DNA of 64,000 bases from a virus. The position numbers were made by a program, and so were the translations under genes. The DNA lies in IMG/VR virus record IMGVR_UViG_3300045988_173726, positions 64,001 to 128,000 of that record; one strand, given 5' to 3'. A model generated the notes under the pieces. That model was not told the origin of the DNA. It did not search any database and saw nothing but the letters and a program-made list of their open reading frames with translations. Below, one piece after another: positions 4,442-48,751 of the stretch; the first letter of the stretch is position 1, and each line of letters starts with the position of its first letter.

Positions 4442-4447
4442 AGTAAT

Positions 4448-33346: not shown

Positions 33347-33649
33347 ATGGGAGAGCAGAATAGAAATCCGCTTGAGGGGTTACTTGAGGTACGGCGTGAG
33401 GTAAGAAAGCTTTGTCCAGAGCTTTTTCCGAAAGAGGAGCGAGTAGCCTACGGGGTAGTAGGCGAGACAGGAGAGCCTTCGGTGGCGCTTCAAAAGTTTA
33501 ATAAGCTATTGGCGGCACAGACGGGCAGTAAGACAGGAAAGAAGCGAAAGACAGCGGTAAAAGTCCCAGCAAAGCAAGGAAAGGTCGGAGACGGCGAATT
33601 TACGGGAACGAGTTTATTTGAGGCGATGAAACGAGGGGGAGTGCTATGA
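33347..33649 (+). CDS. small basic hypothetical protein
   Basis: ATG 33347 follows GAGGGA. The stop overlaps the next ATG (ATGA). Confidence 0.5.
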   Translation: MGEQNRNPLEGLLEVRREVRKLCPELFPKEERVAYGVVGETGEPSVALQKFNKLLAAQTGSKTGKKRKTAVKVPAKQGKVGDGEFTGTSLFEAMKRGGVL

Positions 33650-34065
33650 GTAAGCGCGTGTATGCGAAAGCCGAGACGGTACGAGTTCTAGATAGGTGGG
33701 ACGAAGAAGCGGAAGCTTCACTACAACTGCTTGCGTCCCCGAAGGCAATCGTAAGTCGTGTGAGGACAAATCCGAGAGGGTATTTCAAGCGTGTTAAGTA
33801 TGTTGTTCGACACGAAGGGAATGAATTAACTGAGGTTATAGTGAATTGTGAGGATTTTGATGCAGAGTCACCTTTCTTTGTCGGGACAGAGGAGATGATG
33901 TTTGTGTTTTCAACGCGGGGCAGTATACCTTGTACTTCTTTTACCGTCAAAATTAGCTTTGCAACAGGTTCTATCAAGATATTCGGAACTATAGAAGCGA
34001 TAGGATACTTGACAGACTGGCTTCATGTTCCATTTACAGATTTTAAGCTTGTGAGATACAGGTAA
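33646..34065 (+). CDS. family-A paralog A1
   Basis: RVYAKA, VSRVRTNPRG, IKIFG and the C-terminal DWLHVPFTDFKL. RBS GGGGGAG. Confidence 0.65.
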   Translation: MSKRVYAKAETVRVLDRWDEEAEASLQLLASPKAIVSRVRTNPRGYFKRVKYVVRHEGNELTEVIVNCEDFDAESPFFVGTEEMMFVFSTRGSIPCTSFTVKISFATGSIKIFGTIEAIGYLTDWLHVPFTDFKLVRYR

Positions 34066-34083
34066 GAGAATGGGGGTTTTGTT

Positions 34084-34494
34084 GTGAAAGTATATGCGAA
34101 AGCAGTGAAATTGAGAGTACCAGACAGGTGTGACGGGGATATACATGTCACGCTTCAAATGGTTAAGCCTCTAAATGCGGTTTTAAGTAGAATAATGACA
34201 ACGCCGAACGGACGGTTAGTTCGTTCAGAGTATGTTGTTCGGAACGAGCAGGGAGTAACAACTCTTAGAGCAAATTTTGGTGAGTTTTGCGCAGAATCAC
34301 CTGTACCTGACGGCACAGAGCGGATAAGGCTTAGATTTTTAGTACGAGGTGGAGCAATACACACCTCAATTCGTGTCAATATCAATCTTTTGACTGGCTC
34401 TATAGATATATTTGGAAAGTATGGGACAGTCGCAGACTTGACTGACTGGCTTCATGTGTCGCCTAGCGATTTTAAGATTGTGAGAGCCAAGTAA
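34084..34494 (+). CDS. family-A paralog A2
   Basis: KVYAKA, LSRIMTTPNG, IDIFGK, DWLHVSPSDFKI. Confidence 0.65.
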   Translation: MKVYAKAVKLRVPDRCDGDIHVTLQMVKPLNAVLSRIMTTPNGRLVRSEYVVRNEQGVTTLRANFGEFCAESPVPDGTERIRLRFLVRGGAIHTSIRVNINLLTGSIDIFGKYGTVADLTDWLHVSPSDFKIVRAK

Positions 34495-34516
34495 GAAAAG
34501 TTAGCGGGGGAGGTTT

Positions 34517-34933
34517 ATGAGTGGTCGAGTTTACGCGAGAGCAGGGAAGATGCGGGTCAGTCCGTTTCGAGATAGCGACAATGATACTGTACGGGCTACA
34601 CTTCAACGGGTAATATATCCGAGGTCATTTCTAAGTCGGTTAAGAACAAATCCGAAGGCGGAGTTTGTTAGCGCTGAATGCGTCATTCGTAATAGAGCAG
34701 AGAGTATACCGCTACGGTTTGAGGATTTGGTAGCTTTTCATTTCCCCATAGGAACGGTAGGTGTGACTTTAAGGTTTAAGCCGCGCTATAGTTTCGGAGA
34801 CAGTCTACTCTCTATTAAGACTAACCTTATCACAGACGATATAGAGGATATAGAGATAGTCGGGAAAAGAGAAGCGGTTGTAGACTTGTTAGAGTGGTTA
34901 CATGTGCCGCTGTCAGAGTTTCGATTGAAGTAG
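34517..34933 (+). CDS. family-A paralog A3
   Basis: RVYARA, LSRLRTNPKA, IEIVGK, EWLHVPLSEFRL. Confidence 0.65.
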   Translation: MSGRVYARAGKMRVSPFRDSDNDTVRATLQRVIYPRSFLSRLRTNPKAEFVSAECVIRNRAESIPLRFEDLVAFHFPIGTVGVTLRFKPRYSFGDSLLSIKTNLITDDIEDIEIVGKREAVVDLLEWLHVPLSEFRLK

Positions 34934-34946
34934 TTTGGGGTGGTCT

Positions 34947-35402
34947 ATGAGTAAGAAGAGTAAGAAACAGTACGCGAGAGCTGAAGTAATAAGTCCATTT
35001 CTGGGGAGCGGTGGCGATGTGATAAAAGCTTGTCTTAGTATAGTTGTTTCTCCTATGGCATTTGTACGTCGGGTAATAGCGAATAAAATTGGTAAGCTAG
35101 CGGGTGTTGAGTACATTGCTTCTCGTGAAGCTGGCTATCTTCCGATACTGGCAGAAGATTTCCTAGCCAATGCGGATTTACCTAGTAACACGAAATGTGT
35201 AAGGCTTAAGTTCATGTTGCATAGTAGTTTATCCAGCAGTCTATCGGGTGGTATATTCTTAGTATTTGTTAGCTTCCGAGTTGGTCGTGTAGAAATACTC
35301 GGAAAGATGAATACAGTAGTAGCCCTAGTCGATTGGCTTAATGTTCCGTTTTCGGAATTTGAATTTATCCTTCCGAGTTCAGATTCATTGTGTTTAGGTT
35401 AG
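34947..35402 (+). CDS. family-A paralog A4
   Basis: QYARAE, VRRVIANKIG, VEILGK, DWLNVPFSEFEF. I prefer the ATG at 34947. Confidence 0.6.
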   Translation: MSKKSKKQYARAEVISPFLGSGGDVIKACLSIVVSPMAFVRRVIANKIGKLAGVEYIASREAGYLPILAEDFLANADLPSNTKCVRLKFMLHSSLSSSLSGGIFLVFVSFRVGRVEILGKMNTVVALVDWLNVPFSEFEFILPSSDSLCLG

Positions 35403-35415
35403 GGGGTTTGTGGAT

Positions 35416-35838
35416 ATGAGTGGCAGGAAGTATTTGGATGTGGGCCATTTGAAGATAAGTAGTTCTGGTGGTATGCGAGGTCTATTGCATGTAACTTGCA
35501 AGACTAGCGCTTCTCTAAAGGCACTTGCGAGTAGAGTTTGCACGAATCCGCATAGTAGATTAACGGAAGCCTATTATTTAGTGGCGGGAAGTAGTGGGCG
35601 GCTTAATATCGAGGAGCTAAGTGTGTTGGACTTAAAAGCCTTTCGTTTACCCGAGGTGGCTGTTGGGCTTAGACTTGATTTTTCATCAAAAGGTAAGCTA
35701 GAAAGCAGGATAGGCGGCGAGGAGTTTTCAGTTTGGATTAACTCTGTGGAGAGTAAGCTGGAGATAATTGGCAAGAGAAACGCCGTTATAGAGTTGTGCG
35801 CGTGGCTTAATGCGCCGCTTTCAGATTTAATTAAGTAA
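35416..35838 (+). CDS. family-A paralog A5
   Basis: ASRVCTNPHS, LEIIGKRNAV, AWLNAPLSDL. Confidence 0.6.
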   Translation: MSGRKYLDVGHLKISSSGGMRGLLHVTCKTSASLKALASRVCTNPHSRLTEAYYLVAGSSGRLNIEELSVLDLKAFRLPEVAVGLRLDFSSKGKLESRIGGEEFSVWINSVESKLEIIGKRNAVIELCAWLNAPLSDLIK

Positions 35839-35861
35839 TTCTGTGTTTAGGAGGTGAGATT

Positions 35862-36257
35862 GTGGGCGAGAGACGGTATCTGGACGATAGTTCCGTAAAG
35901 ATAGCGTGGGTTGGAGATAAATTAGACGCAAAGTTTAGAGTTGTCTCGTCATTAAAGGCGGTTGCGAGCCGTGTTAGGACAAACCCAAAAGGTAAGTTAG
36001 TGGAGGCTTCATGCGTAGTAGCTAGTGGCGGCAGTGTAAGATATGTTATGCTAAGGGTAGCGGATTTAGTTGCCTTCCGTTTACCTGTTGGGACTACTAG
36101 CGTTTTGCTTATTTTTGAGTCGAAAGGTAGTAGGCGCGGGGAAACATTTTCCATTATAATTGACTTAGCGGGGAAGTCGTTAGAGATAATTGGTAACAGA
36201 AACGAAGTAGTAGATTTGTGTTCGTGGCTTCATGAGCCGATTTGGGGGAATATATGA
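35862..36257 (+). CDS. family-A paralog A6
   Basis: GTG start 8 nt after AGGAGG. ASRVRTNPKG, LEIIGNRNEV, SWLHEPIWGNI. Confidence 0.6.
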   Translation: MGERRYLDDSSVKIAWVGDKLDAKFRVVSSLKAVASRVRTNPKGKLVEASCVVASGGSVRYVMLRVADLVAFRLPVGTTSVLLIFESKGSRRGETFSIIIDLAGKSLEIIGNRNEVVDLCSWLHEPIWGNI

Positions 36258-36310
36258 CAGAACGAAGAAGCAGTGACAAGAGTTCCGTAAAGATAGCGCG
36301 GATAAATTAG
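36254..36310 (+). pseudogene. 5' remnant (18 codons) of a family-A paralog, truncated by TnpB-like element copy 2
   Basis: ATGA overlap with the A6 stop. MTERRSSDKSSVKIARIN resembles the A6 N-terminus MGERRYLDDSSVKIAW. Its TAG stop lies at the element's left boundary. Confidence 0.6.
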
Positions 36311-36400
36311 CCGTTTCCAACGATGCAGAGAAGCGGGAATTACGTCTCAATTTTCTATGTTTTAGTTAAGGTTTTCATTAGGGGCATAGGGTGAATTGTA

Positions 36401-37732
36401 ATGCAGAAGCTAAAGTTGACTATAGTAACACAGCTACACGAGGGAAGTAACCGAGGTTTAATTGAATATATGGAAGCTTCCCGTAGGGATTATGGGAAAG
36501 CAATGCGAGAGACTTTCTATGCAATTAAGCGTGGTGGTTTTGATAAGTCAAAGTACAACACATGCCTTCAACATAGACATGGAATTGTTAGTCGAACTGC
36601 AAATGCTATCATTTCTGACGCTCAAGGAAGATTTTATGCTCTTAAGGCGCTGAAAGAGTGTGAGAGGAAGCAGTTAGAGCGAAAGATTAAATATCTTGAG
36701 AGTACAGTTATTCCTAAGTTAGTTGAGCAAAGGAATCAGAATTCAACTAAGCTTCAAGACGGAGTATTTGTTTCGTTGATTCAACAAAGGAATCTAAGGT
36801 TAAGGGTAGTTTCAAAGAAGTCTAAACTAAATAGGTTGAAGCAGAAGCTTGAAGTGTTGAAGTATCAACTAGAAATAGGAAAGTTAAAGCTTTGTTTTGG
36901 AACGAAAAGGTTGTTAAAGCAAGACCAAGAGAAGTTTATTGAGCAAAGGGATAGTCAGATGACTTTCATAGGAGCTAAGGGGGAGCTAGCATGTAATCAC
37001 AACTTGCAGTTGCGCTACAATCGAAGAAGTAATCAGTTTTTGGTTCGATTGCGTAAAGATTTCGGAGGGTATAAGTTAGTTAAAGGCGAAGATAGGTATG
37101 TTTACGGCAAAGTTTATTTCAATCATCACAAGGGACAGCTTGTTTCGATTCTGAGGTCTAAAACTAGTCCTTTATCTTATAGGATAGTCAAAAGGAAAGG
37201 TAGGTATTATTTACACTGTATATTTGAGTTTCAAGTAGGGAACAGCGGTATAGTTACTCGTTCTTCTTACGGAACGGTAGGATTAGACTTTAACAAAGGG
37301 TTTGTGACCTTATCAGAGACGAATCAGTACGGACATTTAGTTAAAACAGAGTTTATGCCTTATTGTTTCGAGTCTGGAAGTAAAACAAAAACAGACTTAC
37401 AGGATGTAGCTAATCATGTAGTTAAACTAGCTTTACGAACAGGTAAGGATATTTGTATAGAGAATCTTGATTTTAGAAGAACAAAAGCAAAGACAGAAAC
37501 AAAGATAGGAAAGAAATACAATGCTATGCTTCATTCTTTAGCCTATCGAGAGTTCAGTGACGCGATGGGGAGTGTATGTTATAGGAACAGTGTTGGATTG
37601 CACAAAGTAAATCCAGCGTGGACATCATGGTTTGCAGAGAGGATTTATTGTAAACCTATGAAGTTGAACATACATACTGGGGCTTCGTATGTAATAGCAA
37701 GGCGTGGGCAAGGGTATAAGGATGCTATATAA
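36401..37732 (+). CDS. TnpB/IS605-OrfB-like protein lacking the zinc ribbon and the RuvC-III Asp (copy 2)
   Basis: Same length and motifs as copy 1: VGLDFNKG, ICIENLDF, VNPAWTSW, NIHTGASYVIARRG. I counted 20 differences in the first 101 residues. Confidence 0.75.
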   Translation: MQKLKLTIVTQLHEGSNRGLIEYMEASRRDYGKAMRETFYAIKRGGFDKSKYNTCLQHRHGIVSRTANAIISDAQGRFYALKALKECERKQLERKIKYLESTVIPKLVEQRNQNSTKLQDGVFVSLIQQRNLRLRVVSKKSKLNRLKQKLEVLKYQLEIGKLKLCFGTKRLLKQDQEKFIEQRDSQMTFIGAKGELACNHNLQLRYNRRSNQFLVRLRKDFGGYKLVKGEDRYVYGKVYFNHHKGQLVSILRSKTSPLSYRIVKRKGRYYLHCIFEFQVGNSGIVTRSSYGTVGLDFNKGFVTLSETNQYGHLVKTEFMPYCFESGSKTKTDLQDVANHVVKLALRTGKDICIENLDFRRTKAKTETKIGKKYNAMLHSLAYREFSDAMGSVCYRNSVGLHKVNPAWTSWFAERIYCKPMKLNIHTGASYVIARRGQGYKDAI

Positions 37733-37963
37733 ATAGCATTTAACAATCAGTCCTACACAGATGTATCAACGCAAGACAGTTGAGCATTTCCCTGTAGGAC
37801 AAAGTTTAATTAGAAGCTCTGGCAATAATTCTCATTGTGTGGCTCTACGGTCGAAATGGGATGAGTTAGGGTGGAATAGGTTAACCGTAAGACCTTGAGT
37901 TGAAAAACTCTAAAATTGAGCTGGGAATATTGATTTATTAAATTTCGTATTTTCTAGTTACGG
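37733..37963 (+). ncRNA. omega-RNA-like conserved block downstream of TnpB-like copy 2
   Basis: Homologous to 32951-33173 and 31269-31480, with the same terminal CTAGTTACGG. Confidence 0.5.
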
Positions 37964-37967
37964 TTCA

Positions 37968-38000
37968 TGGCTTTATGTGCCGATTTGGAGGAGTGTGTGA
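37968..38000 (+). pseudogene. 3' remnant (10 codons) of a family-A paralog
   Basis: TGG CTT TAT GTG CCG ATT TGG AGG AGT GTG TGA reads WLYVPIWRSV*, which is the family-A C-terminal signature. Its TGA overlaps the ATG of the next paralog. Confidence 0.55.
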
Positions 38001-38671
38001 TGGAAAAAAGAAGAAGCAGTGGAAAGATTAAAGTTAAAAGGGACGCTAATGGTCGTTTAGTTCAGACTTTTGACGCCCAAGTTAAAGTTAAGAGGGACGC
38101 TAATGGTGATTTAGTGCAGATTGGCGGCGATAAAGAAACCGTGCGGGTTAAGGCATCTAGTAGGCACGGTATAGGCACTAGGAATTTGGCAGGGGCAGGT
38201 TTGGGTGTTCATCATCTTGTTAAGGACGCGAGCGGTCGTTTAATTGTGTGTGATAATATTGGTAGTGTTCTTAGGGGTAATCTTGGGGGTAAAAAGATAC
38301 ATTCTATAGATATAGACGGTCGGGTTCAGTTATGGAGAGGTAACGGAGTTTGTAGTGTATCATTTGGGATACTGATGGAGCCAAGAGAGTTTTTGGAGGG
38401 ATTGGTACAGTATCCGAATTGCACGAGAGCTGAAGTAGCTCTGATGTATCCGAGTTTTAAGTCTACAAAGTTTACTGCTAATTATAGCTTAGATAAGCTG
38501 ATTAGAAATGGGCTTTCAGAGGACACTCGTGGTATGATTCTTTATTTTAGTCGCAATAGGGAAGTAAACTATAACCTTACAGCGATGGTAAGCTTTATGG
38601 ATAGGATACTGACGCTTACAGGGGATAATGATTATGTGGCGGCGTTGGTTCATTGGCTTAGTGCGAGGTGA
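38000..38671 (+). CDS. family-A-related paralog A7 with an N-terminal repeat extension
   Basis: ATG 38000 follows GGAGGAG. N-terminus MEKRRSSGK. Repeats VKVKRDANGRLVQ, VKVKRDANGDLVQ and VKDASGRLIV. C-terminus LTLTGDNDYVAALVHWLSAR. Confidence 0.55.
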   Translation: MEKRRSSGKIKVKRDANGRLVQTFDAQVKVKRDANGDLVQIGGDKETVRVKASSRHGIGTRNLAGAGLGVHHLVKDASGRLIVCDNIGSVLRGNLGGKKIHSIDIDGRVQLWRGNGVCSVSFGILMEPREFLEGLVQYPNCTRAEVALMYPSFKSTKFTANYSLDKLIRNGLSEDTRGMILYFSRNREVNYNLTAMVSFMDRILTLTGDNDYVAALVHWLSAR

Positions 38672-39024
38672 CTTGTGTGAATAGACCGATGGTAAAGCTC
38701 TTACATGTCGAGCAGAATCACGGCGGGGTTGATTGGAGTAGGGTGCTTCACTATAAGATTCTGATAAACACATTAACCTTCGCGAAGATTCTTGTAAAGA
38801 AGAATTTAGATGAAATAGAGTTTATACAGTGTGTGGAGTATGTAAAAGACGAGTGTAGCGGAGCTTGGAAGAGTGAGTGGAGTCGTATTAAGCCAGACGA
38901 GTTCTTAAAGCTTAAGTATCGGCGTAAAGAACGCAAGGAGTATATTATCAACTTCACGAGCTGTAATGTGGCGGTAATTCGTTGTTGGCGGCGGGAAGCG
39001 GATATTGTAGAGGTTAGTTTATAG
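38668..39024 (+). CDS. hypothetical small protein, possibly a diverged family-A member
   Basis: It occupies a paralog slot in the array. The start is uncertain (GTG 38668 or ATG 38689) and similarity to family A is weak. Confidence 0.4.
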   Translation: MTCVNRPMVKLLHVEQNHGGVDWSRVLHYKILINTLTFAKILVKKNLDEIEFIQCVEYVKDECSGAWKSEWSRIKPDEFLKLKYRRKERKEYIINFTSCNVAVIRCWRREADIVEVSL

Positions 39025-39042
39025 CGTTTATAGGGGGAGTTT

Positions 39043-39372
39043 ATGCGGAAAGCGCGAATTAAGCAAGTTGAAGTAGGGAAGTGGAAGCTAACGGAGTCGG
39101 TAGAGAGTTTTCTTCGCTTTGCGCTTAGGGAAAGCAACTTTAGTAACGCATTATTCAAGGTTACTGTAGGAGATGGGGAGCAGTGGAAACAGGTTTCGGT
39201 AGTCGAGGCAGTTAGCTTTGCGAAGCAGACGCTACGGTTTATCTGTATTGAGTATGGCGACCCGTCTACGATGCGAAGTTGTAGTATGTGTATAGACGCA
39301 GGGAGCAGGCTTTTAACGCTTTTTGGTGACGAGGAGCTTATCGGATTTGTTCTTTCCGAGTGCGGGGTGTGA
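39043..39372 (+). CDS. diverged family-A-like paralog A9
   Basis: RBS GGGGGAG. The C-terminal LLTLFGDEELIGFVLSE resembles the I.IFGK....L..WL block. Confidence 0.5.
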   Translation: MRKARIKQVEVGKWKLTESVESFLRFALRESNFSNALFKVTVGDGEQWKQVSVVEAVSFAKQTLRFICIEYGDPSTMRSCSMCIDAGSRLLTLFGDEELIGFVLSECGV

Positions 39373-39803
39373 GAGTGGCGAAAAGAAAGCGTCTTGAAGT
39401 TATTAAGCGTTATATTAGTCCAGACCTGTGTTATGCAGAGGTAACTTGTGAGCTAGGCTGTAAGCCTTCTGCAATTTGTAGCTGGGCGCTTAAGACCTCT
39501 GGGGTTGCAGAGTATGTGGAAATAATGGCAGAGCATAAATTAGGCTTGTGGGGGCGAGTAACACAGTCGGTTCTTGAGCGTGATGTTTTAATAGGGGGCA
39601 GAGAGTTCATGTTCTCTTTTGGTACGAGACCTGATGACACTTTTCTTACCCTTTTTCTTGACTGTAGGTATAGGCAAGTGCGTATTTGTGGAATACCGGA
39701 GTTGATTTTCTCGTTTATAAAGGCATTTAATGGCGCGATAGTGATAAAAAGCCTTTTATATGAGTATGCAAAGGCTGTCTTACAGCACGAAGAGGTGGAA
39801 TGA
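39360..39803 (+). CDS. diverged family-A-like paralog A10
   Basis: QVRICGIPELIFSFIKAFN resembles LEIIGKRNAVIELCAWLN. An alternative start is the GTG at 39375. Confidence 0.45.
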   Translation: MRGVRVAKRKRLEVIKRYISPDLCYAEVTCELGCKPSAICSWALKTSGVAEYVEIMAEHKLGLWGRVTQSVLERDVLIGGREFMFSFGTRPDDTFLTLFLDCRYRQVRICGIPELIFSFIKAFNGAIVIKSLLYEYAKAVLQHEEVE

Positions 39804-40189
39804 TGAATGGCAGAGTTTTAATTAGCGAAGAGCCGCTAGAGGTGACGCCTATTAGTTGGGATACCCGCGCTATCTTTCGTACTGTGGCTACACCGAGGAA
39901 GATATTAGAGAGGATTCTAAGCATGCCGCAGAGCGATAGTTATAGTGCAAACTTGATTTTGGCAGACGGTTCATTGAATCCGATAAGCGAAGCGGCTCTT
40001 AGGTCTTTGAAGTTTCCGAGAGGCACAGTTGGAGTAGAGTTTTCCCATTCTTATGTGATTAGTGGTGGTTGGGTGACAATTTGGATAGCGATTAAATTTC
40101 GTGAAAAGACGCTTACTTTGCAGGGTGATGCGTGTGGTGTGAGTTCGGCAGTAACTTGGCTTTTAACAACAGAAGAGACGCGGGAGTAG
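39800..40189 (+). CDS. family-A paralog A11
   Basis: ATGATG start overlaps the upstream stop. Pattern LERILSMPQS, KFPRGTVGVEF, LTLQGDACGVSSAVTWLL. Confidence 0.55.
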   Translation: MMNGRVLISEEPLEVTPISWDTRAIFRTVATPRKILERILSMPQSDSYSANLILADGSLNPISEAALRSLKFPRGTVGVEFSHSYVISGGWVTIWIAIKFREKTLTLQGDACGVSSAVTWLLTTEETRE

Positions 40190-40192
40190 CCT

Positions 40193-40627
40193 ATGTATCA
40201 AGTATATACTTACACGTTGAGCGAGCTATACAGTTTGTTTGACAATGGCAGGATTAAGTTGAAAGCGCCTAGTGATAGGACGCTCTCGAATGAGCATGTG
40301 CGGCTCTTGCTTGACGGGATATTTTGCGGTTATCCGATAGCGCCGCTTGTGATAATTAGAGGAGCTACAGAGCTAGGAGAGCCAGTTATTAAGGTTTTGC
40401 ATGGCACGTTTGTTTTGTCTGTTCTGCTCGGATACCGTAAGGGAGCAATACGGAGCAAAGGTTATTTGAGTTTTAAGAGCGTATCTGATAGGTCAAAGCA
40501 CGGAGACAGCGATGATTTTATAAAGCTTATGAACTATGATGTACCTGTTATAGCGCTTAGTGATGCGAAGAGTGGAGAAGCAGAGGCAACGCTACGGTTG
40601 ATTAGAGCAATGGGAAAGCACGAGTGA
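40193..40627 (+). CDS. family-B paralog B1 (degenerate DUF262/ParB-like N-terminal domain)
   Basis: LLLDGIFCGYPIAPLVII....VIKVLHGTFVLSVLLGY fits the LIDSI..G.PIP.I.L....VIDGQQRL..L..F pattern, but FQR and DGQQR are replaced. Confidence 0.5.
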   Translation: MYQVYTYTLSELYSLFDNGRIKLKAPSDRTLSNEHVRLLLDGIFCGYPIAPLVIIRGATELGEPVIKVLHGTFVLSVLLGYRKGAIRSKGYLSFKSVSDRSKHGDSDDFIKLMNYDVPVIALSDAKSGEAEATLRLIRAMGKHE

Positions 40628-40635
40628 GGTAGAAT

Positions 40636-41229
40636 ATGGGAGCGGTCATTAAGAAAGAATTTTGGACGGTAGAGCAGATTTTTCGCTTTGTGGATGAGAG
40701 ATTGGATAAGAACGCCTTTTACACTTTGAGAACAGAGGAAGGTGCAAGTAAGGGCGCAGTGATAGATGATATAACTACGCTAGCGCAGAGTCTTGAGGAG
40801 TTTCCAAACGATGTGTTAAACTGTGTATTTAATAATTATCCACTTCCGAATATCGTACTTTGCCGTGCTAGGTTATTTCCTGACGAGAGATTTAGAGAGG
40901 GTATAGGCGAAGATGTTTGGGCGCTTTGTTCTGGTGAATTAATACTTGGTACACTTTATGCCTACCGTGAAGGTTTAGCTAATTGGCGTGCGGTTGAAGA
41001 GGATGCCGAGATTGATTATGATGACGCCGATGATGCTAATTTTGACTGGTGGAATGGTGAAAGTTATCAGACGCTTGTACAAAAGGCTTCCATGGGGGAT
41101 AGAGAGGCGAAGGAGAGGTTGGAAGCCTTTAATAACTGTGAGATTCCGTTTATTCGTATAATGGAGATTGATGACAAGGAATACATTTGGGAAATTGACG
41201 AAGTGCTTGAGTATTGCTCCGACTACTAA
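40636..41229 (+). CDS. family-B paralog B2
   Basis: VLNCVFNNYPLPNIVLCR...WALCSGELILGTLYAY, with an acidic C-terminal extension. Confidence 0.5.
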   Translation: MGAVIKKEFWTVEQIFRFVDERLDKNAFYTLRTEEGASKGAVIDDITTLAQSLEEFPNDVLNCVFNNYPLPNIVLCRARLFPDERFREGIGEDVWALCSGELILGTLYAYREGLANWRAVEEDAEIDYDDADDANFDWWNGESYQTLVQKASMGDREAKERLEAFNNCEIPFIRIMEIDDKEYIWEIDEVLEYCSDY

Positions 41230-41239
41230 GAGGCAGTAT

Positions 41240-41635
41240 ATGCAGACAAGCGGGACGGTAACGGTCAAGTGGCTTTACGATAAGTATGACAAACTAGTTA
41301 CGGCGGGAGCATTAAAGCCGTTAAGGTTCGGGGCGATTGTTTACGAGAACGAAGGTCACTATAAAGACATTTTGTCGGCTATCGTGCAGGGCTTGCCTAT
41401 TCCGCAGATAGTGGTAGGGCGAGTGAGAGCGGGGGAGACAGAGCGTTATAGCATAGTTTCTGGCGTGTTTATTCTATGTAGTTTGCTTAATTTTCGTGCC
41501 GAGAGCGGTGGTATGAGCGCAGAGCGAGTATTACAGATTTTAAGCTATTCTGTAAATCTAACGATGCTTGATACGATGACACCCCAGCGTTTAACAGAGG
41601 TAAGTAAGCTTCTAGGCGAGGTTCTGATATGGTAA
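41240..41635 (+). CDS. family-B paralog B3
   Basis: ATG 41240 follows AAGAGG; the track start at 41168 overlaps B2. ILSAIVQGLPIPQIVVGR...YSIVSGVFILCSLLNF. Confidence 0.5.
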   Translation: MQTSGTVTVKWLYDKYDKLVTAGALKPLRFGAIVYENEGHYKDILSAIVQGLPIPQIVVGRVRAGETERYSIVSGVFILCSLLNFRAESGGMSAERVLQILSYSVNLTMLDTMTPQRLTEVSKLLGEVLIW

Positions 41636-41997
41636 ACTACGAAGTAATGGGGATGTCGGTTAGGGACTTGTATCGAAGGTTAAAAAACGGGCAGATTATT
41701 TTAGAGTCAAAATACTTTGTGAAAGCTACGACAAGTAGCGAGGAGTTATTGCTTCGTGGAGTGCTTTCTGGCGTCCCGTTTCCTGCTATCGTGCTAATGC
41801 GAGAGAGCAAGGGCTATAGCGTAATTCTCGGCAGGGAGCTGTTGAGTGTGCTTATATCATTGCTTGATAGTAACGTTTATGAGGAGCTTGACGATATTGA
41901 CAAGTTTATGCTTATGCGTCACTGCTTTTATGTAAATATTGTGGAAGGTCGTGACAGCATAGATATTGTTGTAGAGGTTTTCGAGAGCTTTCGTTAG
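41629..41997 (+). CDS. family-B paralog B4
   Basis: LLLRGVLSGVPFPAIVLMR..YSVILGRELLSVLISLL. Confidence 0.5.
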   Translation: MVNYEVMGMSVRDLYRRLKNGQIILESKYFVKATTSSEELLLRGVLSGVPFPAIVLMRESKGYSVILGRELLSVLISLLDSNVYEELDDIDKFMLMRHCFYVNIVEGRDSIDIVVEVFESFR

Positions 41998-42010
41998 GAG
42001 GACTTGTTGC

Positions 42011-42379
42011 ATGAAGCACTTTAACTGTTACAACATCGACTTAACTATTTTTGATATACATGATAAGTGTTCCAGTGGAGATTTGTTGTACAAGTGTGGC
42101 AGTGATATTAAAGAGAGTGACATTGAGCTGTTAAATACCTGCCTTGAGTCTGGCTATCCGCTTCCAACACTGGTAGTTTACATAGGGAAAGACGCGCCAG
42201 CAAGGGTTCTGGTGGGTAATAGACTTGTTGCAACGATTAGCGCGTTTGTGACTATGGGAAAGTACAAAAGTTCAGTGCGAGAGAGGTTGTTTAAGAGCAT
42301 TCATTGTATCATAATAGATTCAGCTAGTCTCAGTGACGCGAATAACATTCGGCGTTTATTTAAGAGGTTTTCAGCATGA
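42011..42379 (+). CDS. family-B paralog B5
   Basis: RBS AGGAGG. LLNTCLESGYPLPTLVVY...RVLVGNRLVATISAFV. Confidence 0.5.
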   Translation: MKHFNCYNIDLTIFDIHDKCSSGDLLYKCGSDIKESDIELLNTCLESGYPLPTLVVYIGKDAPARVLVGNRLVATISAFVTMGKYKSSVRERLFKSIHCIIIDSASLSDANNIRRLFKRFSA

Positions 42380-42771
42380 GCAAGAAGTATAGGGAGATTA
42401 AGATTAAACCAGAGGAGTTAGGGCACTTGGCAGATAATTTCAAGTTATCTGTCGTGAATATTGGCAATCGGGTAGCTACTAAGCTAGACATTAGCAGAGT
42501 GAAGTCGCTTGCGGCGCATGGATTTCCGTTTCCTACGCTTGTTTTAGCAGAGTATTTAGTGGACGGGAATAGAAAGTATCGTGTTGTTTATGGCGCTGGG
42601 CTTGTATCGGCTATTTTGTCCTACATAGCTAACGCTTCGGAGAAGGAAAAGGATACGCAAGCGTTTAAGGAGTTTATGCGGTACGAGTTTACGGCTTTTG
42701 TGGTGGGCAGTGATAACAAGGAGAACGATTACTTGTTTGATGCATTTAAGGGAATAAACAGAAAGGGTTAA
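42376..42771 (+). CDS. family-B paralog B6
   Basis: VKSLAAHGFPFPTLVLAE...YRVVYGAGLVSAILSYI. The start overlaps the B5 stop. Confidence 0.5.
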   Translation: MSKKYREIKIKPEELGHLADNFKLSVVNIGNRVATKLDISRVKSLAAHGFPFPTLVLAEYLVDGNRKYRVVYGAGLVSAILSYIANASEKEKDTQAFKEFMRYEFTAFVVGSDNKENDYLFDAFKGINRKG

Positions 42772-44361
42772 ATGGAGATAAAAGAGCTACTTAATGGGGT
42801 AATAGACGAGAGAGAGCTTGATTATCGGGTGTTAATCGGGGAAGAGGGGGCTTCAAAGCCCCCGTTAATCCCGTTTTTTAATTTAATGCCTGCATTAAAC
42901 TTAATGCATCGGCATTTGGTTCGTGGCGGGAGTGTGTTAATTCACGCAGATGTTGATATGGACGGGTTAGGCGCAGCGAAAGTTGTAAGAGAGGAGCTTA
43001 ATGCGATTGGGTTTAAGGATATAAAGACCTGTATCAACAGTAAGCGGGAGCATGGGATGAATCCGCAGATAGTGTCTCATGTGAATAGCAAGAAGCCGAG
43101 TTTATTTATAGTCGTAGACAGTAGTAGTAACGACTTAGAGTATATAAAGGCTTTGGAGTGCGATGTAATGGTCTTAGACCATCATATAGTAGAGCATAGC
43201 GAGTATTCTGGAAAGACAGCTGGCGGGGAGTATCTAATCATAAACTGTATGATAGATAACAAGGCAGATGGTTATGAAGCAGACGAGGATATGTCGGGAG
43301 CATTGGTAGCTTACGAGTTTTTCCGTCAGTATGAGGACAGAGTAGACAGGCATTATCTTGAGGGTCTTAAGTTGTATCAGTGGGTCGGGGTAACTTTGAT
43401 TTCCGACATCATACGGACGGGGAATGCAAGGAACCAGTGGTATATCGAAAGGACGATAAATCAGACAGAGCTTAGAGACGAGTTGCGGGTTTTAATGCGG
43501 GTGTTGAATCCGAACGAGAAGAGGCTAACGCGGTCGTTTATCGCCTATAAGCTAGTCCCTGCGGTAAATAAGGCGATACGGGCGGGGGCTACAGCGGTAG
43601 CACTGTATGTAATCATGGCACATCCAGAGGAAGCATATAAGCTAGAGGTTTACGGGAAGTATCAGCCGAAGGTAAACGACATTCCGAAGCGGGTTGTGCG
43701 GATAGAGAACGGAATCGGGATAGTCGATTTAGGTGAGCTTAATTTAGCGGTGAATGTGCTTGGGTTAGCGGTAAACTATACGGGCTTGGTAGCGGCTATG
43801 GTAATGAGAAAGCATAACTGTAGTGCGATAGCATATGTGCGTGATACGGATAGCGAGGGGAACACGATTTTCCGTGGGTCATTTCGCGGGAGAGCGCACG
43901 GATTGCCCTATAAGGAGATAGCCACGAAGTATAGTATTATGGCGCAGGGGCATACGAACGCCTTTGGTATAAGGGTAAAGCCTAGTGAGTTAAGCCGTTT
44001 AACGGGGGCGCTAGGTATTAGTGAGAGTGCCTATCGGTATAAGCCGTATTGCACGATGTATCCGATACGGGATGACTTGCGGGGGCGACATTTTAAGGAT
44101 TTAGGGGAGCTAAGAGAGGGGAAGAAACTTTTGTATCTCGGGATAGCGAATAGTCGGTTGTCGTCCGATGAGCAGATAAATGTGACGATGGAGAGTAAGA
44201 ATCTAGTGCTTACGGAGGAGCATACGAACTACTACAAGTACGAGATAGACGGCTACGAGGTAACAGCCTTTGAGCGCGTGAAAACGGAATTTGTAGACAT
44301 ATATTTTGAGTATGGTGAGTATCTTCGTGGCTATGTGCGAGCTAGACACGACAGCATTTAG
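42772..44361 (+). CDS. DHH/DHHA1-family phosphoesterase (RecJ-like)
   Basis: IHADVDMDGLGAA, FIVVDSSSND, VMVLDHH (the DHH motif) and the later QGHTNAFG (DHHA1-like GH..A.G). The ATG abuts the B6 stop (TAAATG). Confidence 0.65.
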   Translation: MEIKELLNGVIDERELDYRVLIGEEGASKPPLIPFFNLMPALNLMHRHLVRGGSVLIHADVDMDGLGAAKVVREELNAIGFKDIKTCINSKREHGMNPQIVSHVNSKKPSLFIVVDSSSNDLEYIKALECDVMVLDHHIVEHSEYSGKTAGGEYLIINCMIDNKADGYEADEDMSGALVAYEFFRQYEDRVDRHYLEGLKLYQWVGVTLISDIIRTGNARNQWYIERTINQTELRDELRVLMRVLNPNEKRLTRSFIAYKLVPAVNKAIRAGATAVALYVIMAHPEEAYKLEVYGKYQPKVNDIPKRVVRIENGIGIVDLGELNLAVNVLGLAVNYTGLVAAMVMRKHNCSAIAYVRDTDSEGNTIFRGSFRGRAHGLPYKEIATKYSIMAQGHTNAFGIRVKPSELSRLTGALGISESAYRYKPYCTMYPIRDDLRGRHFKDLGELREGKKLLYLGIANSRLSSDEQINVTMESKNLVLTEEHTNYYKYEIDGYEVTAFERVKTEFVDIYFEYGEYLRGYVRARHDSI

Positions 44362-44430: not shown

Positions 44431-45261
44431 GTGAAGATTGGAAATAAAGTCGTTCACAAGACATCATTGAATGAGGGAAAGAGCCTTGTGCCTGTAATTG
44501 CGGTAGGTGCGGGTATCGTAGGCGCAGTGGTTTATGTGTCGCTTGTCGGTAGGAATGCGAGTAAGAGCGTACAGGTTGCGCAGTTAAAGAGTAGCGTTTA
44601 TAAGAATCAGCCGATTACGCTGGATATGCTACAGCCGTATGATATGTTGCAGGCAGAGTATGACAAGCAGATAATGTCCACGGCGAATAGTGACGGCACG
44701 GTGGAGAAGCGTTTAGTTGCTTGGAAAGATGTGCAGGGCTATTTGTCGCAGGGTGCGTTTGCGGCGTATCAGCTTCCGAAGGAGAGTTTTCTCGATTTAA
44801 GGACGCTTATGACGAGCAGAGTGGACAATAGCGACAGTGTTCTTTACAGTTTCCCGGGAAAAGAGGTTGTACAGCTTGAAGTAAACGGTGCAGACTTAAA
44901 TGCGTTCAAGACTTTCATACAACCTGGAGATAAAGTAAACATTGATGCTATATACTCCGAGGATATGCAGAGTGGTAACGACAGAGTTAAGATATATCGT
45001 TCCGAGCCAGTGTTTACGGGCATTATGATAGCGGATATTATCAACAGTTCGGGTGCTTCGGTATTAGACATGTATGCAGAGTATAACGCAATGTCCGAGG
45101 TAGATAAGGCGGCATTGGATAACGATGCGACATGGCAGGAGCAGACAGAGCCGAGTTCGCTGTTAGTCGCCTTAACGCCAGATGAGAAGGACAGCTATTA
45201 TAAGTTCTTAAATCGCGACAATGTGAAGTTTAAGGTGTCGTTGCCGCAGAGAGCGGACTAA
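44431..45261 (+). CDS. CpaB/RcpC-like Flp pilus assembly protein
   Basis: N-terminal TM segment LVPVIAVGAGIVGAVVYVSLV, then a SAF-like segment VQVAQLKSSVYKNQPITLDMLQ. First gene of the Tad cluster. Confidence 0.5.
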   Translation: MKIGNKVVHKTSLNEGKSLVPVIAVGAGIVGAVVYVSLVGRNASKSVQVAQLKSSVYKNQPITLDMLQPYDMLQAEYDKQIMSTANSDGTVEKRLVAWKDVQGYLSQGAFAAYQLPKESFLDLRTLMTSRVDNSDSVLYSFPGKEVVQLEVNGADLNAFKTFIQPGDKVNIDAIYSEDMQSGNDRVKIYRSEPVFTGIMIADIINSSGASVLDMYAEYNAMSEVDKAALDNDATWQEQTEPSSLLVALTPDEKDSYYKFLNRDNVKFKVSLPQRAD

Positions 45262-45273
45262 GGGGGTAGGTTC

Positions 45274-46197
45274 ATGGCAGATATGCAGGATATACTTAAC
45301 TCTTCGGATATGGCTGACGGAAACGACTTACGGAGTAAGACAGATAAGGCGGTAGGTCGCTTAATCAGTCGTTTTTCTGGGGCAGATGAGAGTAGGAAGA
45401 TAGTAAAGCGGGTGTTAAACAATGTCATCGTGTTTATGGGAGCAAGCGGTGGCGCGGGAGCAAGCACGCTGGTCGCGACAGAAGCGGTTGCGATGAAGGA
45501 GAAGGGTCTTACGGTAGCGGTAGTTGACCTTGGAATCATGTTTCCGAGTCAGCATATCTATTTTGACTTAGACCAGTCTATCGGAAAAGCAGATTTAGTT
45601 TCGTATCTTTCGGGTAATAACGGGTTAAATGTGTCGCTTGAGTATAGCGATGTGCTGTTTAACAACGAGGCTACGGGGGTGGCAACGCTAACTGCTTGTA
45701 ACAGGACGCTTCGGGACTATGTGGTTATTGACAGTTCAAATGACGCGGTGCAAGCTTTAACGGAGGCATTAAACAGGCTTTCGAGTTTATTTGATGTAGT
45801 TCTAATCGACTGTAAGCTTGATTTAAGCTCTATGCTTGTGCAGACGACTCTGTTTAGGGCAGATAACATCTACTTGGTTATGGACGATGGGGTGCAGTCG
45901 CTCATAAATGTCAGTAAGCTCCGCGCAAACCTAGACGATTCGGGTATAAACACGAATAAGGTGCGTTATATCATGAACAAGCGTAAGAGTTTCTATTACG
46001 CAGAAAACAACTTAAAAGCGCTCGGTATAGAGTTAATCGGTATTTTGCCGTTTGAGATGGGTGTAGTCGAGTGCGGTTTAAGGGGACAGCTATTTACGGT
46101 ATCGGGAAAGAATACTAGCAAGACTTCCCCGAAGTATTTAGAGGCGGTAGACAGTCTAACGGCATCAATCCTTGAGATAGGAGGATATACAGAGTGA
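45274..46197 (+). CDS. TadZ/CpaE-like MinD/ParA-fold protein with a degenerate P-loop
   Basis: VIVFMGASGGAGASTLVATEAVAMKEKGLTVAVVDLG aligns to the ..SGKGGVGKTT..A..LA..G..V.LVDLD pattern, but both Lys are absent. Sits immediately upstream of the CpaF-like ATPase. Confidence 0.55.
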   Translation: MADMQDILNSSDMADGNDLRSKTDKAVGRLISRFSGADESRKIVKRVLNNVIVFMGASGGAGASTLVATEAVAMKEKGLTVAVVDLGIMFPSQHIYFDLDQSIGKADLVSYLSGNNGLNVSLEYSDVLFNNEATGVATLTACNRTLRDYVVIDSSNDAVQALTEALNRLSSLFDVVLIDCKLDLSSMLVQTTLFRADNIYLVMDDGVQSLINVSKLRANLDDSGINTNKVRYIMNKRKSFYYAENNLKALGIELIGILPFEMGVVECGLRGQLFTVSGKNTSKTSPKYLEAVDSLTASILEIGGYTE

Positions 46198-47744
46198 ATC
46201 CAGAGCAGTATTTGCATATGCAGTCAAAGCGTGGTGCAAAGCAGACCACGACAGACAAGACAGCGCGTCCGTTTGAGAGTGTATTAACGGAGTGCAGAGG
46301 GTATATCGACAAGAATGCCGATTCGCTGGAGAGTAAGTCGGGTACAGAAAAGACAAAGAAGATAGGCGAGTTGATTTTGTCGTATCTGATGCAGGCGAAG
46401 CCGTTGGTCGAGGGGTTTATAAACGCGGACGGCACTTCCGACACACAGGGGTTAACCCAGCGTTTAACGCAGGAAATCACGGATTACGGTATTTTAACGG
46501 ATGCGTTAGAGAACGATGACATTTTCGAGATACGAGATAACGGTCGAGAGATAAAGGTCGAGATAAAGGGACATGTAGAGGACTATCGCGACCCAAAGAC
46601 AGGTCATATCGTAAGGTTTGACTCGCCAGAACAGCAGAAAACGGTCATTGCGAAGTTGCTCGGCGATGTGAGACTTACGCCAAAGGACGCAGTGGTTAAT
46701 GCGAGAACGGTGCAGGGCTATCGTGTAGCGGCATTGCATAGTTCGGCGCAGTCGAAAGACCCGATAGACCCGTCAAACGACCAGTATGCTTCGTTTGTTC
46801 TCCGTAAGTTTAAGCGGAATCGAATGAATCTTGGCGACATAGTAAAGAGCGGTACGCTAAGTGACAACATGGCGCGTTTACTTGCACTTAGTATGTCGGG
46901 AAGTTTAACTTTCTTCACCGTTGGACCAACATCTTCTGGTAAGACGACAACGAACCAAGCGATTTTGCAGGCAACGCCGCCTAAGCAGAGAGTTGTGTTG
47001 CTACAGAATCCGTCCGAGATAGACCTTCGTATGCGAGATTCAACGGGTCGTATCATAAACGATGTGTTGCACTTAGAGGCAAAGGACGACATACAGAATC
47101 CGCTCCCGACTTCTCCGACTATGGAGAACTTGATGAAGCACATTTTGCGACTTTCTCCGACATTTGTGTGTTTCGGTGAGCTTCGAGATAATGTAGAGTT
47201 TCAGCGTGGCATCAGTATCGGTTTAGCGGGTCATCCGTTTAACTGCACCTATCACGCCGAGGATTCGGCGGGTGCAATCGACCGATTCTTAAAGGCGTAT
47301 ATAGCGGCTTCTGGAGAGGGTATAGACACTTCGATGAGTACACTAACGAGGCTTTTGAATTTGATTATTGTGCAGAAGATACTGCCAGACGGCACGCGAA
47401 AGATTTTACAGATTTCGGAGGTAATCGGCACAGACCCGAACGATTCAAGCAAGCCGATAATCAACGATATTTACAGGTATGTGATTGACGAAGAGCCAGA
47501 CCTTGACGATGAGGGAAATGTTCTTCGGATTAACGGTAAGCATAAGCGGGTCGGTTGTTTATCGGAGAAGATAGTGCATAAGTTAAAAATCGAGGGTGTT
47601 GCGACAACGCGGTTTGATTTTCTGTTAAAGCCGCCGACAGCGGACGAGGTAGAGACTTATGAGGGCAACTACGAGACGATTATCCATTACGGCTTGGATA
47701 AGCTAAGAGAGCAGAAGCGCATGAATGCGTTAAAGAAGGACTAA
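46194..47744 (+). CDS. cpaF: CpaF/TadA-type secretion ATPase (VirB11/GspE superfamily)
   Basis: Walker A FTVGPTSSGKTTT. FVCFGELRD box. RLNLIIVQK..PDGTRK..ISEV, typical of the CpaF C-terminus. Confidence 0.85.
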   Translation: MNPEQYLHMQSKRGAKQTTTDKTARPFESVLTECRGYIDKNADSLESKSGTEKTKKIGELILSYLMQAKPLVEGFINADGTSDTQGLTQRLTQEITDYGILTDALENDDIFEIRDNGREIKVEIKGHVEDYRDPKTGHIVRFDSPEQQKTVIAKLLGDVRLTPKDAVVNARTVQGYRVAALHSSAQSKDPIDPSNDQYASFVLRKFKRNRMNLGDIVKSGTLSDNMARLLALSMSGSLTFFTVGPTSSGKTTTNQAILQATPPKQRVVLLQNPSEIDLRMRDSTGRIINDVLHLEAKDDIQNPLPTSPTMENLMKHILRLSPTFVCFGELRDNVEFQRGISIGLAGHPFNCTYHAEDSAGAIDRFLKAYIAASGEGIDTSMSTLTRLLNLIIVQKILPDGTRKILQISEVIGTDPNDSSKPIINDIYRYVIDEEPDLDDEGNVLRINGKHKRVGCLSEKIVHKLKIEGVATTRFDFLLKPPTADEVETYEGNYETIIHYGLDKLREQKRMNALKKD

Positions 47745-47756
47745 GGGGGTGATGGA

Positions 47757-48749
47757 ATGAAGATAAGCCCGTCACTTTATACGGTAGCGGGGGCTTCAAA
47801 GGTGGCGACACTGGTGATAATCCTCCTAGCGCTGTATGTGTTTATCGTTTGGTTTGGGATACATCCGCTAGATGTATTGCTTATCGGCTTAGACAAGTTC
47901 ACAAGGCTTGTAGGTCGGAGGGTAAATAGGCTTGACGAGCGGTATAAGCGAAATGTCGAGGTAGGTAAGCTTCGTGACGGAAGTAACTCGGTTAGGCTTT
48001 ATAAGTTTATGAACGACTTAACGATAGACTTAGGGTATAAGCGAAAGGGTGTAACGCCATACGAGTTGATGCTGTTTATTCTAGTCATATCGGTAGTGGT
48101 ATCGCTTTTAATCGGGGAGCTGATATTTAGAAGCCTGTTGCTTTCATTTCTAGCGTTTATCCCAGTGCTTTTGTCGGTGTGTTGCATCCTTTATACGAAG
48201 GCAAATATCTCGCATGATAGCCGAATCGAGGCAGTTATTTTAGCGGAGAACATAATCTCTGCAAATATCGACCGAGGCGTGGTCGTTGCGATAAGGACAA
48301 ACATTGAGTCGATGCCGATAAGCATTAAGTCCGAGTTTACGAAGTTTTTAGACAGGGTAGAGACGCAGAACTACTACATCGAGACAGCACTATTAGAGCT
48401 AGGTGCGTCCCTTGGTTCTATATCGGACGATTTTATCAGTAAGTGCATCACTTTCGAGCTTGAGGAAGAGGCTGGTTTAGCTGGTATCTTCAAAGATGTG
48501 GTAGAGGTGAATAACATAAAGACCGAGCTTAGAATCGACATGAAGCACAAGTTTGAGGCAGTGACATTTGACTTCATAATCAGTGCTACGATGGTGTTTG
48601 TGTTTTTAATCGGTGCGATAGCGATATATCCGATTTTGCAGAGATTTTATTTCCGAATGATAGTAGGACAGCTTCTTCTCCTAGTGGATTTCATGCTTGT
48701 GGTGTTTGAGTTTGTCTACATCACTTATCTTAGAGCAAAAGAGGTGTAA
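47757..48749 (+). CDS. TadB-like inner-membrane platform protein
   Basis: Polytopic, with TM segments at both ends and a soluble middle. Sits directly after the CpaF-like gene. Confidence 0.55.
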   Translation: MKISPSLYTVAGASKVATLVIILLALYVFIVWFGIHPLDVLLIGLDKFTRLVGRRVNRLDERYKRNVEVGKLRDGSNSVRLYKFMNDLTIDLGYKRKGVTPYELMLFILVISVVVSLLIGELIFRSLLLSFLAFIPVLLSVCCILYTKANISHDSRIEAVILAENIISANIDRGVVVAIRTNIESMPISIKSEFTKFLDRVETQNYYIETALLELGASLGSISDDFISKCITFELEEEAGLAGIFKDVVEVNNIKTELRIDMKHKFEAVTFDFIISATMVFVFLIGAIAIYPILQRFYFRMIVGQLLLLVDFMLVVFEFVYITYLRAKEV

Positions 48750-48751
48750 GT

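Follow-up and report, generated by a model that had tools for sequence, protein, structure and literature searches.

DUF262 is among the most widespread immune sensor domains of prokaryotes, with a place in type IV restriction, Ssp, Menshen, Dazbog and Dnd systems. In the form of ParB-DUF262 it is the nucleoside triphosphate (NTP)-driven sensor of immune nucleases, including GmrSD/BrxU, SspE, Menshen NsnA and DndB; Dazbog and PD-T4-2 also carry the corresponding Pfam family, PF03235 (GmrSD_N, formerly DUF262), and DndB represents a related branch with the motif DGQHR. How DUF262 recognises foreign DNA, and how mobile elements escape it, are both poorly understood, and to our knowledge BrxU is the only enzyme of the GmrSD family with a solved structure. 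Three motifs characterise the domain: QRxxxW (motif I), DGxQR (motif II) and FxxxN (motif III) (PMC12065111). The sequence DGQQR is present in nearly 100% of GmrSD proteins (PMC4619093), and in BrxU the residues D98, Q100, Q101 and R102 place the gamma-phosphate, such that mutants at these positions lose defence (PMC4619093, PMC8565348). Here we analyse a stretch of 64,000 nucleotides (positions 64,001 to 128,000 of the IMG/VR virus record IMGVR_UViG_3300045988_173726; hereafter the window), in which six consecutive small genes, B1-B6, very probably encode stand-alone DUF262 domains that are predicted to have lost their catalytic function.

Six tandem genes of one family

Positions 40193-42771 of the window are filled by six consecutive open reading frames (ORFs) on the plus strand, encoding proteins of 122-197 amino acids (aa), and are followed at once by an exonuclease gene:

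B1: 40193-40627, + strand; 144 aa; basic, isoelectric point (pI) about 9.0; motif I remnant APSDRTL
B2: 40636-41229, + strand; 197 aa; DUF262-like domain with two insertions
B3: 41240-41635, + strand; 131 aa; motif I deleted; the most constrained copy
B4: 41629-41997, + strand; 122 aa; overlaps B3 by 7 nucleotides (nt)
B5: 42011-42379, + strand; 122 aa; the copy that diverges most between elements
B6: 42376-42771, + strand; 131 aa; basic; overlaps B5 by 4 nt
RecJ-like DHH exonuclease gene: 42772-44361, + strand; start codon directly after the B6 stop codon (0 nt gap)

One of the two insertions in B2 is an acidic stretch (AVEEDAEIDYDDADDANFDWW), and the protein as a whole has a pI of 4.2 with 22% aspartate plus glutamate. 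For B3 we take the ATG at 41240, which has an AAGAGG Shine-Dalgarno sequence upstream; the mechanically called ORF opens at a TTG at 41168, within B2. Spacing between the B genes ranges from -7 to +13 nt and ribosome-binding sites of the GAGG type precede most of them. Given this tight spacing, the ribosome-binding sites and the contact between the B6 stop and the RecJ-like start, the six genes look like one operon, and the RecJ-like gene is probably part of the same transcription unit. Repeats, promoters and terminators were sought within the DNA of the array, with nothing above chance.

Pairwise similarity between the six proteins is weak when assessed by BLASTP (E 6e-5 to 6e-3, 24-36% identity over partial lengths). 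A multiple alignment nonetheless brings out the common pattern G-[YLVF]-P-x-P-x-x-V ... G-x-x-[LIV], in which P48, V53 and G71 are invariant. In a leave-one-out test, a profile was built without each paralogue and its orthologues and the omitted paralogue was then scored against it (Z=1500), giving E-values of 7e-15 for B1, 3.5e-4 for B2, 1e-11 for B3, 1e-12 for B4, 3e-8 for B5 and 1e-9 for B6. Scored against the family profile, none of the other stop-to-stop ORFs of the window, in any frame, did better than E 0.58. Since the leave-one-out profiles detect all six copies and no other ORF of the window matches, the array is a true six-member paralogous family, far above chance. The first-pass annotation, which had described six tandem small proteins of 122-197 aa with a common pattern, is thus upheld by the ORFs, the alignment and the profiles alike.

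Homology to DUF262 N-terminal domains

Standard annotation is blind to this family. Pfam and PHROGs returned no match for B1-B6 apart from sub-threshold Pfam noise, such as HTH_16 in B2, which scored 18 bits where the cutoff is 22, and a Pfam scan for PF03235 recovered none of the six B proteins and none of 25 family members, up to E 10. A profile search of PDB sequences with the B family gave no relevant match, and PADLOC gave only weak ones, among which B4 matched Menshen's ParB-DUF262 protein NsnA at a borderline level (E 0.0044). The kinship described below emerged only from exhaustive profile searching and from structure comparison.

When 5.8 billion proteins were searched with a word-indexed method, 153 unannotated matches were found, and those listed (120 of 153) were all orthologues of B1, B2, B5 or B6, from contigs of up to ~272 kb. 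An exhaustive HMMER search of 1.84 billion representative proteins with a 25-sequence profile of the B family yielded 13 matches below E 1e-10, all of them the B family itself, together with ~380 further matches ranging from E 4e-9 up to E 1e-3. Among the further matches listed, most were proteins of 150-650 aa aligned N-terminally over nearly the whole profile, and 102 of 110 of these proteins belong to PF03235, with Pfam E-values down to 5e-33; the consensus of the matched PF03235 proteins carries the canonical QR..VW, LIDSI..GYPxP and DGxQRL. Alignment by hhalign of the B family with 125 of the matched N-domains gave a probability of 99.4% (E 1.8e-21, 141 columns) for templates that were picked with the B profile, yet are certified independently by Pfam. 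It spans the full-length B protein on the full DUF262 N-domain.

The predicted structure of B1 points in the same direction. The AlphaFold2 model has a predicted local distance difference test score (pLDDT) of 83.4 and a predicted template-modelling score (pTM) of 0.75, and in a Foldseek comparison with the PDB its top match is BrxU (7p9k; probability 1.00, query template-modelling score (TMq) 0.65), followed by sulfiredoxin, Noc, ParB, KorB and PadC, which together make up the ParB/Srx fold. Against predicted viral structures (BFVD) there were 21 matches at E <1e-3, of which the named ones are nearly all GmrSD_N/DUF262; the best has E 4e-8 and TMq 0.76, and the matches include stand-alone viral proteins of 141-162 aa.

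We therefore regard it as very probable that each B protein is a complete ParB/Srx-fold DUF262 (GmrSD_N) domain and nothing else, and that the six belong to a lineage-specific, anciently duplicated family. All of them end with the N-domain, having neither the helical ParBDB DNA-binding domain nor a DUF1524/HNH nuclease, and a scan of the B proteins and of neighbouring genes turned up no DUF1524/HNH domain or paired GmrD. The HMMER matches, the hhalign alignment and the likeness of the B1 model to BrxU thus bear out the earlier proposal of a DUF262/ParB-like N-terminal domain, and the profile and structure searches, which were also run for any absence of ParB/Srx likeness or for membership of another family, came out in favour of ParB/Srx-DUF262. 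By homology, the B family is a strongly diverged branch of ParB-DUF262.

Loss of the catalytic motifs

Aligned to the three DUF262 motifs, the B proteins read as follows:

Motif I column: B1 DRTLS (Arg kept); B6 NRVAT (Arg kept); B2, B4 and B5 without Gln or Arg; B3 with the segment deleted
Motif II column: B1 HGTFV; B2 SGELI; B3 SGVFI; B4 LGREL; B5 VGNRL; B6 YGAGL
Motif III column: B6 FKGIN (FxxxN-like); B1-B5 without Asn

In all six copies only the glycine of DGxQR is left. The statement in the first-pass annotation that FQR and DGQQR are replaced in every copy therefore stands for DGQQR, but needs correction for motif I, where the arginine stays in B1 (DR) and B6 (NR). At the motif III column, B6 and most of its orthologues have the FxxxN-like sequence FKG[ILF]N. 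What remains across the family is the hydrophobic core, h-h-x-x-h-x-x-G-Y-P-x-P-x-h-V-h ... G-x-x-h-h; the residues that are invariant family-wide are exclusively prolines, valines and glycines of the structural core, and no polar residue is common to the family. Every paralogue does carry blocks of its own that are strongly conserved among orthologues, for example APSDRTL and LSVLLGY in 63 B1 sequences and YRVVYGAGL in 30 B6 sequences.

As motif II is reduced to a glycine in all six copies and motif I is lost or reduced to an arginine, the B proteins are predicted to be pseudo-enzymes, unable to run the canonical NTP cycle. Because the Pfam threshold, motif I, motif II and the features that define GmrSD and ParB clamps all fail, DUF262-derived pseudo-enzyme domains is a more fitting description than GmrSD or ParB.

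A hypervariable island beside a conserved core

The window was compared with eight related loci for protein identity, for the synonymous substitution rate (dS) and for the ratio of nonsynonymous to synonymous rates (dN/dS). The B array is the 3′ end of a variable region that adjoins a strongly conserved one:

Hypervariable island: 33305-42771, + strand; about 19 small ORFs, the B array forming its 3′ end
B1: identity 77-89%, or absent; dN/dS 0.16-0.23; dS ~0.4
B2: identity 54-67%; dN/dS 0.20-0.36 (rough, dS near saturation); dS 0.5-1.4
B3: identity 86-91%; dN/dS 0.08-0.14; dS 0.36-0.66
B4: identity 66-92%; dN/dS 0.13-0.35; dS 0.3-1.0
B5: identity 30-45%; dN/dS 0.39-0.64 (rough, dS near saturation); dS 0.9-1.2
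B6: identity 49-68%; dN/dS 0.22-0.57 (rough, dS near saturation); dS 0.6-1.3
Genes 3′ of the array (RecJ-like, Tad-like locus, next ORFs): identity 95-100%; dN/dS 0.00-0.08; dS ~0.2-0.47

The boundary between island and core is sharp and lies at 42771/42772, which is exactly the junction between B6 and the RecJ-like gene. On the core side the RecJ-like protein is 95-97% identical among relatives (dN/dS 0.05-0.08), and one small ORF 3′ of the array falls to 83% identity in one locus. On the island side the number of B copies varies from 5 to 7: a second B2-type gene is present in most relatives, some loci have a split or truncated B1 or B2a, and two (L008 and L010) lack B1 altogether. The B genes thus undergo nonsynonymous change several-fold to tens-of-fold faster than their neighbours, in addition to the gain and loss of copies. 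They are nevertheless real genes under purifying selection, given ORFs that are intact in more than 100 database variants, Shine-Dalgarno sequences, intergenic distances of -7 to +13 nt and dN/dS values below 1. Charge is conserved by paralogue across orthologues, with pI values of 4.1-4.7 for B2 and ~9.2 for B1 and B6; overall, B1, B3, B5 and B6 are neutral to basic and B2 and B4 acidic.

The suggestion that stand-alone, back-to-back copies are unusual holds in part. No second array was found elsewhere, but small solo DUF262-like proteins do occur: four others with degenerate sequences (P0160, P0215, P0249 and P0250) are single genes on short contigs resembling mobile elements.

The surrounding element

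Every substantial ORF of the window lies on the plus strand. GC skew is between +0.20 and +0.39 in every 2 kb bin, with G exceeding C ~1.5- to 2.3-fold on the coding strand, which is unusually extreme and may stem from replication mode or DNA chemistry, and no tRNA gene was found in the window. Among the products encoded are SbcCD-like proteins, a UvrD helicase, the RecJ-like exonuclease and a FEN-like nuclease, as well as a 1216-aa NlpC/P60 protein, an LCP (LytR-CpsA-Psr) cell-wall protein and an MscS-like channel. The main landmarks outside the island are:

SbcCD-like pair: 781-2118 (AAA_23/SMC_N) and 2971-3924 (metallophosphatase)
MscS-like channel: 13787-14569
LCP protein: 19093-20328
Tad-like locus: 44431-49846; a CpaB-like protein, a ParA/TadZ-like ATPase, a T2SSE ATPase, and two more ORFs, of 330 aa and 364 aa, unmatched in Pfam
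Actin-like partition protein (ALP/ParM type): 52883-54040

The Tad-like locus, of which the ParA-like gene at 45274 is a part, has 99-100% protein identity over the eight related elements at dS 0.2-0.4 and dN/dS ~0.01, and is therefore under extreme purifying selection right beside the hypervariable island.

The relatives of the window are contigs of 140-268 kb that IMG/VR classes as viral, and nr gives one protein the name 'Caudoviricetes sp.'. Among the genes of the window no phage structural hallmark was recognised, a contig scan of 185,579 GTDB species genomes found no relative, and megablast against phage and plasmid collections found no close DNA relative; in a tblastn search with the RecJ-like protein, relatives appeared at 21-25% identity only, in Firmicutes phages and Bacillus plasmids. 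We describe the whole as an unclassified giant extrachromosomal element of ~260 kb. Its cargo is partly plasmid-like and of Gram-positive type (LCP, NlpC/P60), which is only a hint as to the host. Identity with the Inocles was considered and rejected because the GC content differs, at 24-32% for Inocles (PMC12340149) against ~45% for the window.

Besides the B array, the island houses a second paralogue family, A, at 33646-36257, along with two IS605-orfB-like insertions and unrelated small ORFs. Family A consists of six small paralogues of 131-155 aa that are 25-44% identical, is confined to the same element lineage and shows 26-88% identity between relatives. An AlphaFold2 model (pLDDT 87.7) has weak Foldseek matches to the RnlA NRD (TMq 0.46, probability 0.97-0.99) and to CYTH/TTM (E 0.014, root-mean-square deviation >10 Å). 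Family A is bracketed by two paralogous genes for 443-aa proteins (31619-32950 and 36401-37732; 80% identical; the copy scanned has no Pfam match), and behind each gene comes an IS605-orfB-I RNA (RF03065, 179-203 bits), at 32968-33178 and 37750-37967; a solo copy of this RNA lies at 31272-31485. The 443-aa genes are missing from seven of the eight related loci, and together with their RNAs they give the appearance of a divergent TnpB-like element and its guide RNA that have inserted recently. Also in the island, an ORF at 37967-38671 (234 aa) contains a 39-nt segment repeated at 54-nt spacing with 90% identity (38028-38120), which encodes the doubled peptide VKVKRDANG.LVQ. Beyond the island, a 395-aa transposase in 56489-57793 (phrog_506, E 1e-98) precedes a RAGATH-18 RNA (RF03064, 69 bits) at 57713-57793, and just past the SbcCD-like pair two adjacent paralogous ORFs in 3929-4978 encode proteins of 170 and 176 aa (32% identical, E 7e-10), one of which, 3929-4441, has no Pfam match.

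Discussion

The reading that we favour, with a probability of roughly 0.35-0.4, is that the B proteins are non-enzymatic binding modules that serve anti-defence, on behalf of the element against its hosts or rivals. B1-B6 would be co-transcribed as one operon, and their common scaffold would present a different surface in each paralogue, basic in B1 and B6 and strongly acidic in B2, as in inhibitors that mimic DNA. Each paralogue may then titrate a different target. This could be a host immune protein of the DUF262 type, blocked through non-productive association with its N-domain or its nucleotide-gated interface, or it could be a DNA feature that DUF262 sensors read and that a B protein would shield; a set of several copies that diverge fast would suit the variety of DUF262 enzymes. 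In a more specific and more tentative version, the element may have captured a DUF262 sensor domain, killed its NTPase and amplified it to six or seven pseudo-enzymes, each a decoy or dominant-negative directed against a different DUF262 defence (GmrSD/BrxU, SspE, Menshen, Dazbog).

The contrast between B genes that are 30-92% identical and RecJ and Tad neighbours that are 95-100% identical at similar dS, together with the change in copy number, suggests the signature of an arms race. The location on a mobile element, the hypervariable hotspot, the diversification of multiple copies and the presence of an acidic member are circumstantial support for the same role. There are also precedents: phage T4 has Ip1, Ip2 and Ip3, each of which is needed against a different GmrSD variant (PMC12373910), and TifA of an enterococcal phage is a small acidic protein that binds and inhibits type IV restriction enzymes (PMC11322646). 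These cases make several specific copies plausible.

A number of considerations weigh on the other side. In our literature searches we came across no anti-defence protein described as an inactivated homologue of DUF262. BrxU dimerises via intertwined linkers (PMC8565348), which are absent from the B proteins, and so simple poisoning of heterodimers is not obviously possible. A dN/dS below 1 with high divergence would also be consistent with accessory genes that do something else and are under relaxed constraint, and the island gathers insertion sequences as any dispensable region would. Finally, family A yielded no clear defence-related fold, which leaves the idea of a whole 'island of decoys' tentative.

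Several other explanations account for part of these observations. The B proteins might bind, shield or organise the element's own DNA, ParB-DUF262 having been kept for recognition of DNA or of its modifications in the absence of an NTP cycle. We consider this unlikely, although DUF262 domains have been proposed as sensors of DNA or modification (PMC12065111), B1, B3, B5 and B6 are neutral to basic, the motif I arginine and the residues adjacent to it are strongly conserved among B1 and B6 orthologues, and the element has partition machinery nearby (the actin-like protein) as well as extreme strand asymmetry. Characterised relatives require a downstream helical ParBDB or helix-turn-helix (HTH) domain for DNA binding (PMC12065111), whereas the B proteins have neither; B2 and B4 are acidic; and housekeeping proteins would be expected to show the conservation of core genes, not 30-90% identity with gain and loss of copies. 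An element-borne module for defence or exclusion, in which the B proteins serve as diversified, NTPase-independent sensors or adaptors for a separate effector directed at competing phages or plasmids, perhaps the RecJ-like DHH nuclease, would fit the overwhelming association of DUF262 with defence systems, the abutment of the B6 stop and the RecJ-like start, the weak match of B4 to NsnA and the polymorphism that is typical of defence sensor modules (PMC12065111). Yet DGxQR is kept in all known DUF262 defence proteins, the PADLOC models had no convincing match, the RecJ-like protein hardly changes between elements whose B genes vary, and genes of the RecJ type are found in many phages and plasmids that have no such array. 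We also know of no precedent for six sensors with neither a fused nor a paired effector, and judge such a module to be improbable.

Tandem arrays of fast-diverging small paralogues are typical of immunity-gene clusters on mobile elements, and the B genes, with their gain and loss of copies, have this appearance. Each B protein would in that case neutralise a different toxin, such as the ParB/DUF262-domain toxins or other nuclease toxins of competitors, and ParB-like DNases do occur in polymorphic toxins (PMC5512222). However, neither a toxin gene nor a secretion-associated toxin cassette nor a known Imm family turned up within the array or beside it. Nor are we aware of any immunity family with the ParB/Srx fold, and we would assign this explanation a low probability. 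Just as doubtful is the notion that the genes are duplicates of a once-active DUF262 gene that have no function and are decaying, or that they encode NTPases still active through non-canonical residues. In relatives, certain copies carry frameshifts or truncations or are absent, dN/dS is highest in B5 and B6 (0.3-0.6), and besides the motif I arginine of B1 and B6 there is a shifted arginine near motif II in B4 (GREL) and B5 (GNRL). Decay is difficult to reconcile with dN/dS clearly below 1 for all six genes (0.08-0.23 for B1, B3 and most B4 pairs), with ORFs intact across so many variants, with conserved blocks and charge particular to each paralogue and with a confident AlphaFold2 model, and residual activity is at odds with the lack of any polar residue conserved across the family.

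On the anti-defence reading, the B proteins would be candidates for sensor-domain mimicry as a new anti-defence strategy; we know of no anti-defence arsenal whose members are inactivated versions of the sensor domain of the defence itself. The set may also be viewed as a natural experiment that could indicate which DUF262 surfaces matter once catalysis has been removed and selection is still acting.

Comparison with known systems

The closest described proteins are those of PF03235 (GmrSD_N), which have the same fold as the B proteins and sequence homology to them over the whole domain of ~130 aa. The two share an N-terminal beta-strand and helix, the helix-strand unit hhDSh..GYPxPxhhh and the helix h.G..hh..h..F, and B6 retains the FxxxN-like block. 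The B proteins differ in standing alone, with no ParBDB and no DUF1524/HNH, and in the loss of motifs I and II, from which no NTPase activity would be expected. They also differ in setting, with six tandem diversified copies on a mobile element as against one gene copy placed in a defence island.

ParB, Noc and KorB share the ParB/Srx fold with the B1 model (Foldseek matches 6sdk, 7ol9 and 8qa9; probability 0.84-0.97), with the helix bearing G-x-x-R at an equivalent position. The B proteins, in contrast, lack the GERRxR arginine patch, an HTH domain for DNA binding and a dimerisation domain at the C-terminus, and the TMq of the B1 model is ~0.4 to ParB clamps against 0.65-0.76 to DUF262, which makes a clamp mechanism unlikely. 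A ParB-like clamp independent of cytidine triphosphate was considered as a candidate and is thought unlikely on the same grounds, there being no HTH, no dimerisation domain and a lower similarity to ParB than to DUF262.

Osa of the IncW plasmid pSa and the DdrB-like solo ParB/Srx proteins are likewise small proteins of mobile elements that act in conflict between elements (PMC5512222, PMC4619093). Unlike the B family, they keep the active-site arginine and are ATPases or DNases (PMC5512222, PMC4619093); in those two papers they are not reported as a tandem array, which is the arrangement of the B genes, and Osa is absent from the top 50 structural matches of the B1 model. With Ip1, Ip2 and Ip3 of T4 the likeness is one of functional analogy only, in that several small, fast-evolving proteins from a mobile-element hotspot are directed against one GmrSD variant each (PMC12373910), and TifA is acidic in the manner of B2 (PMC11322646). 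Neither the Ip proteins nor TifA have any kinship with the B proteins in sequence or fold, and those inhibitors are not homologues of their targets. Solo ParB/Srx proteins on mobile elements (PMC5512222) and solo viral GmrSD_N proteins are thus already known, whilst the combination found here, of lost catalytic motifs, six- to sevenfold tandem amplification and differentiated surfaces in a hypervariable island of a giant element, appears to be new.

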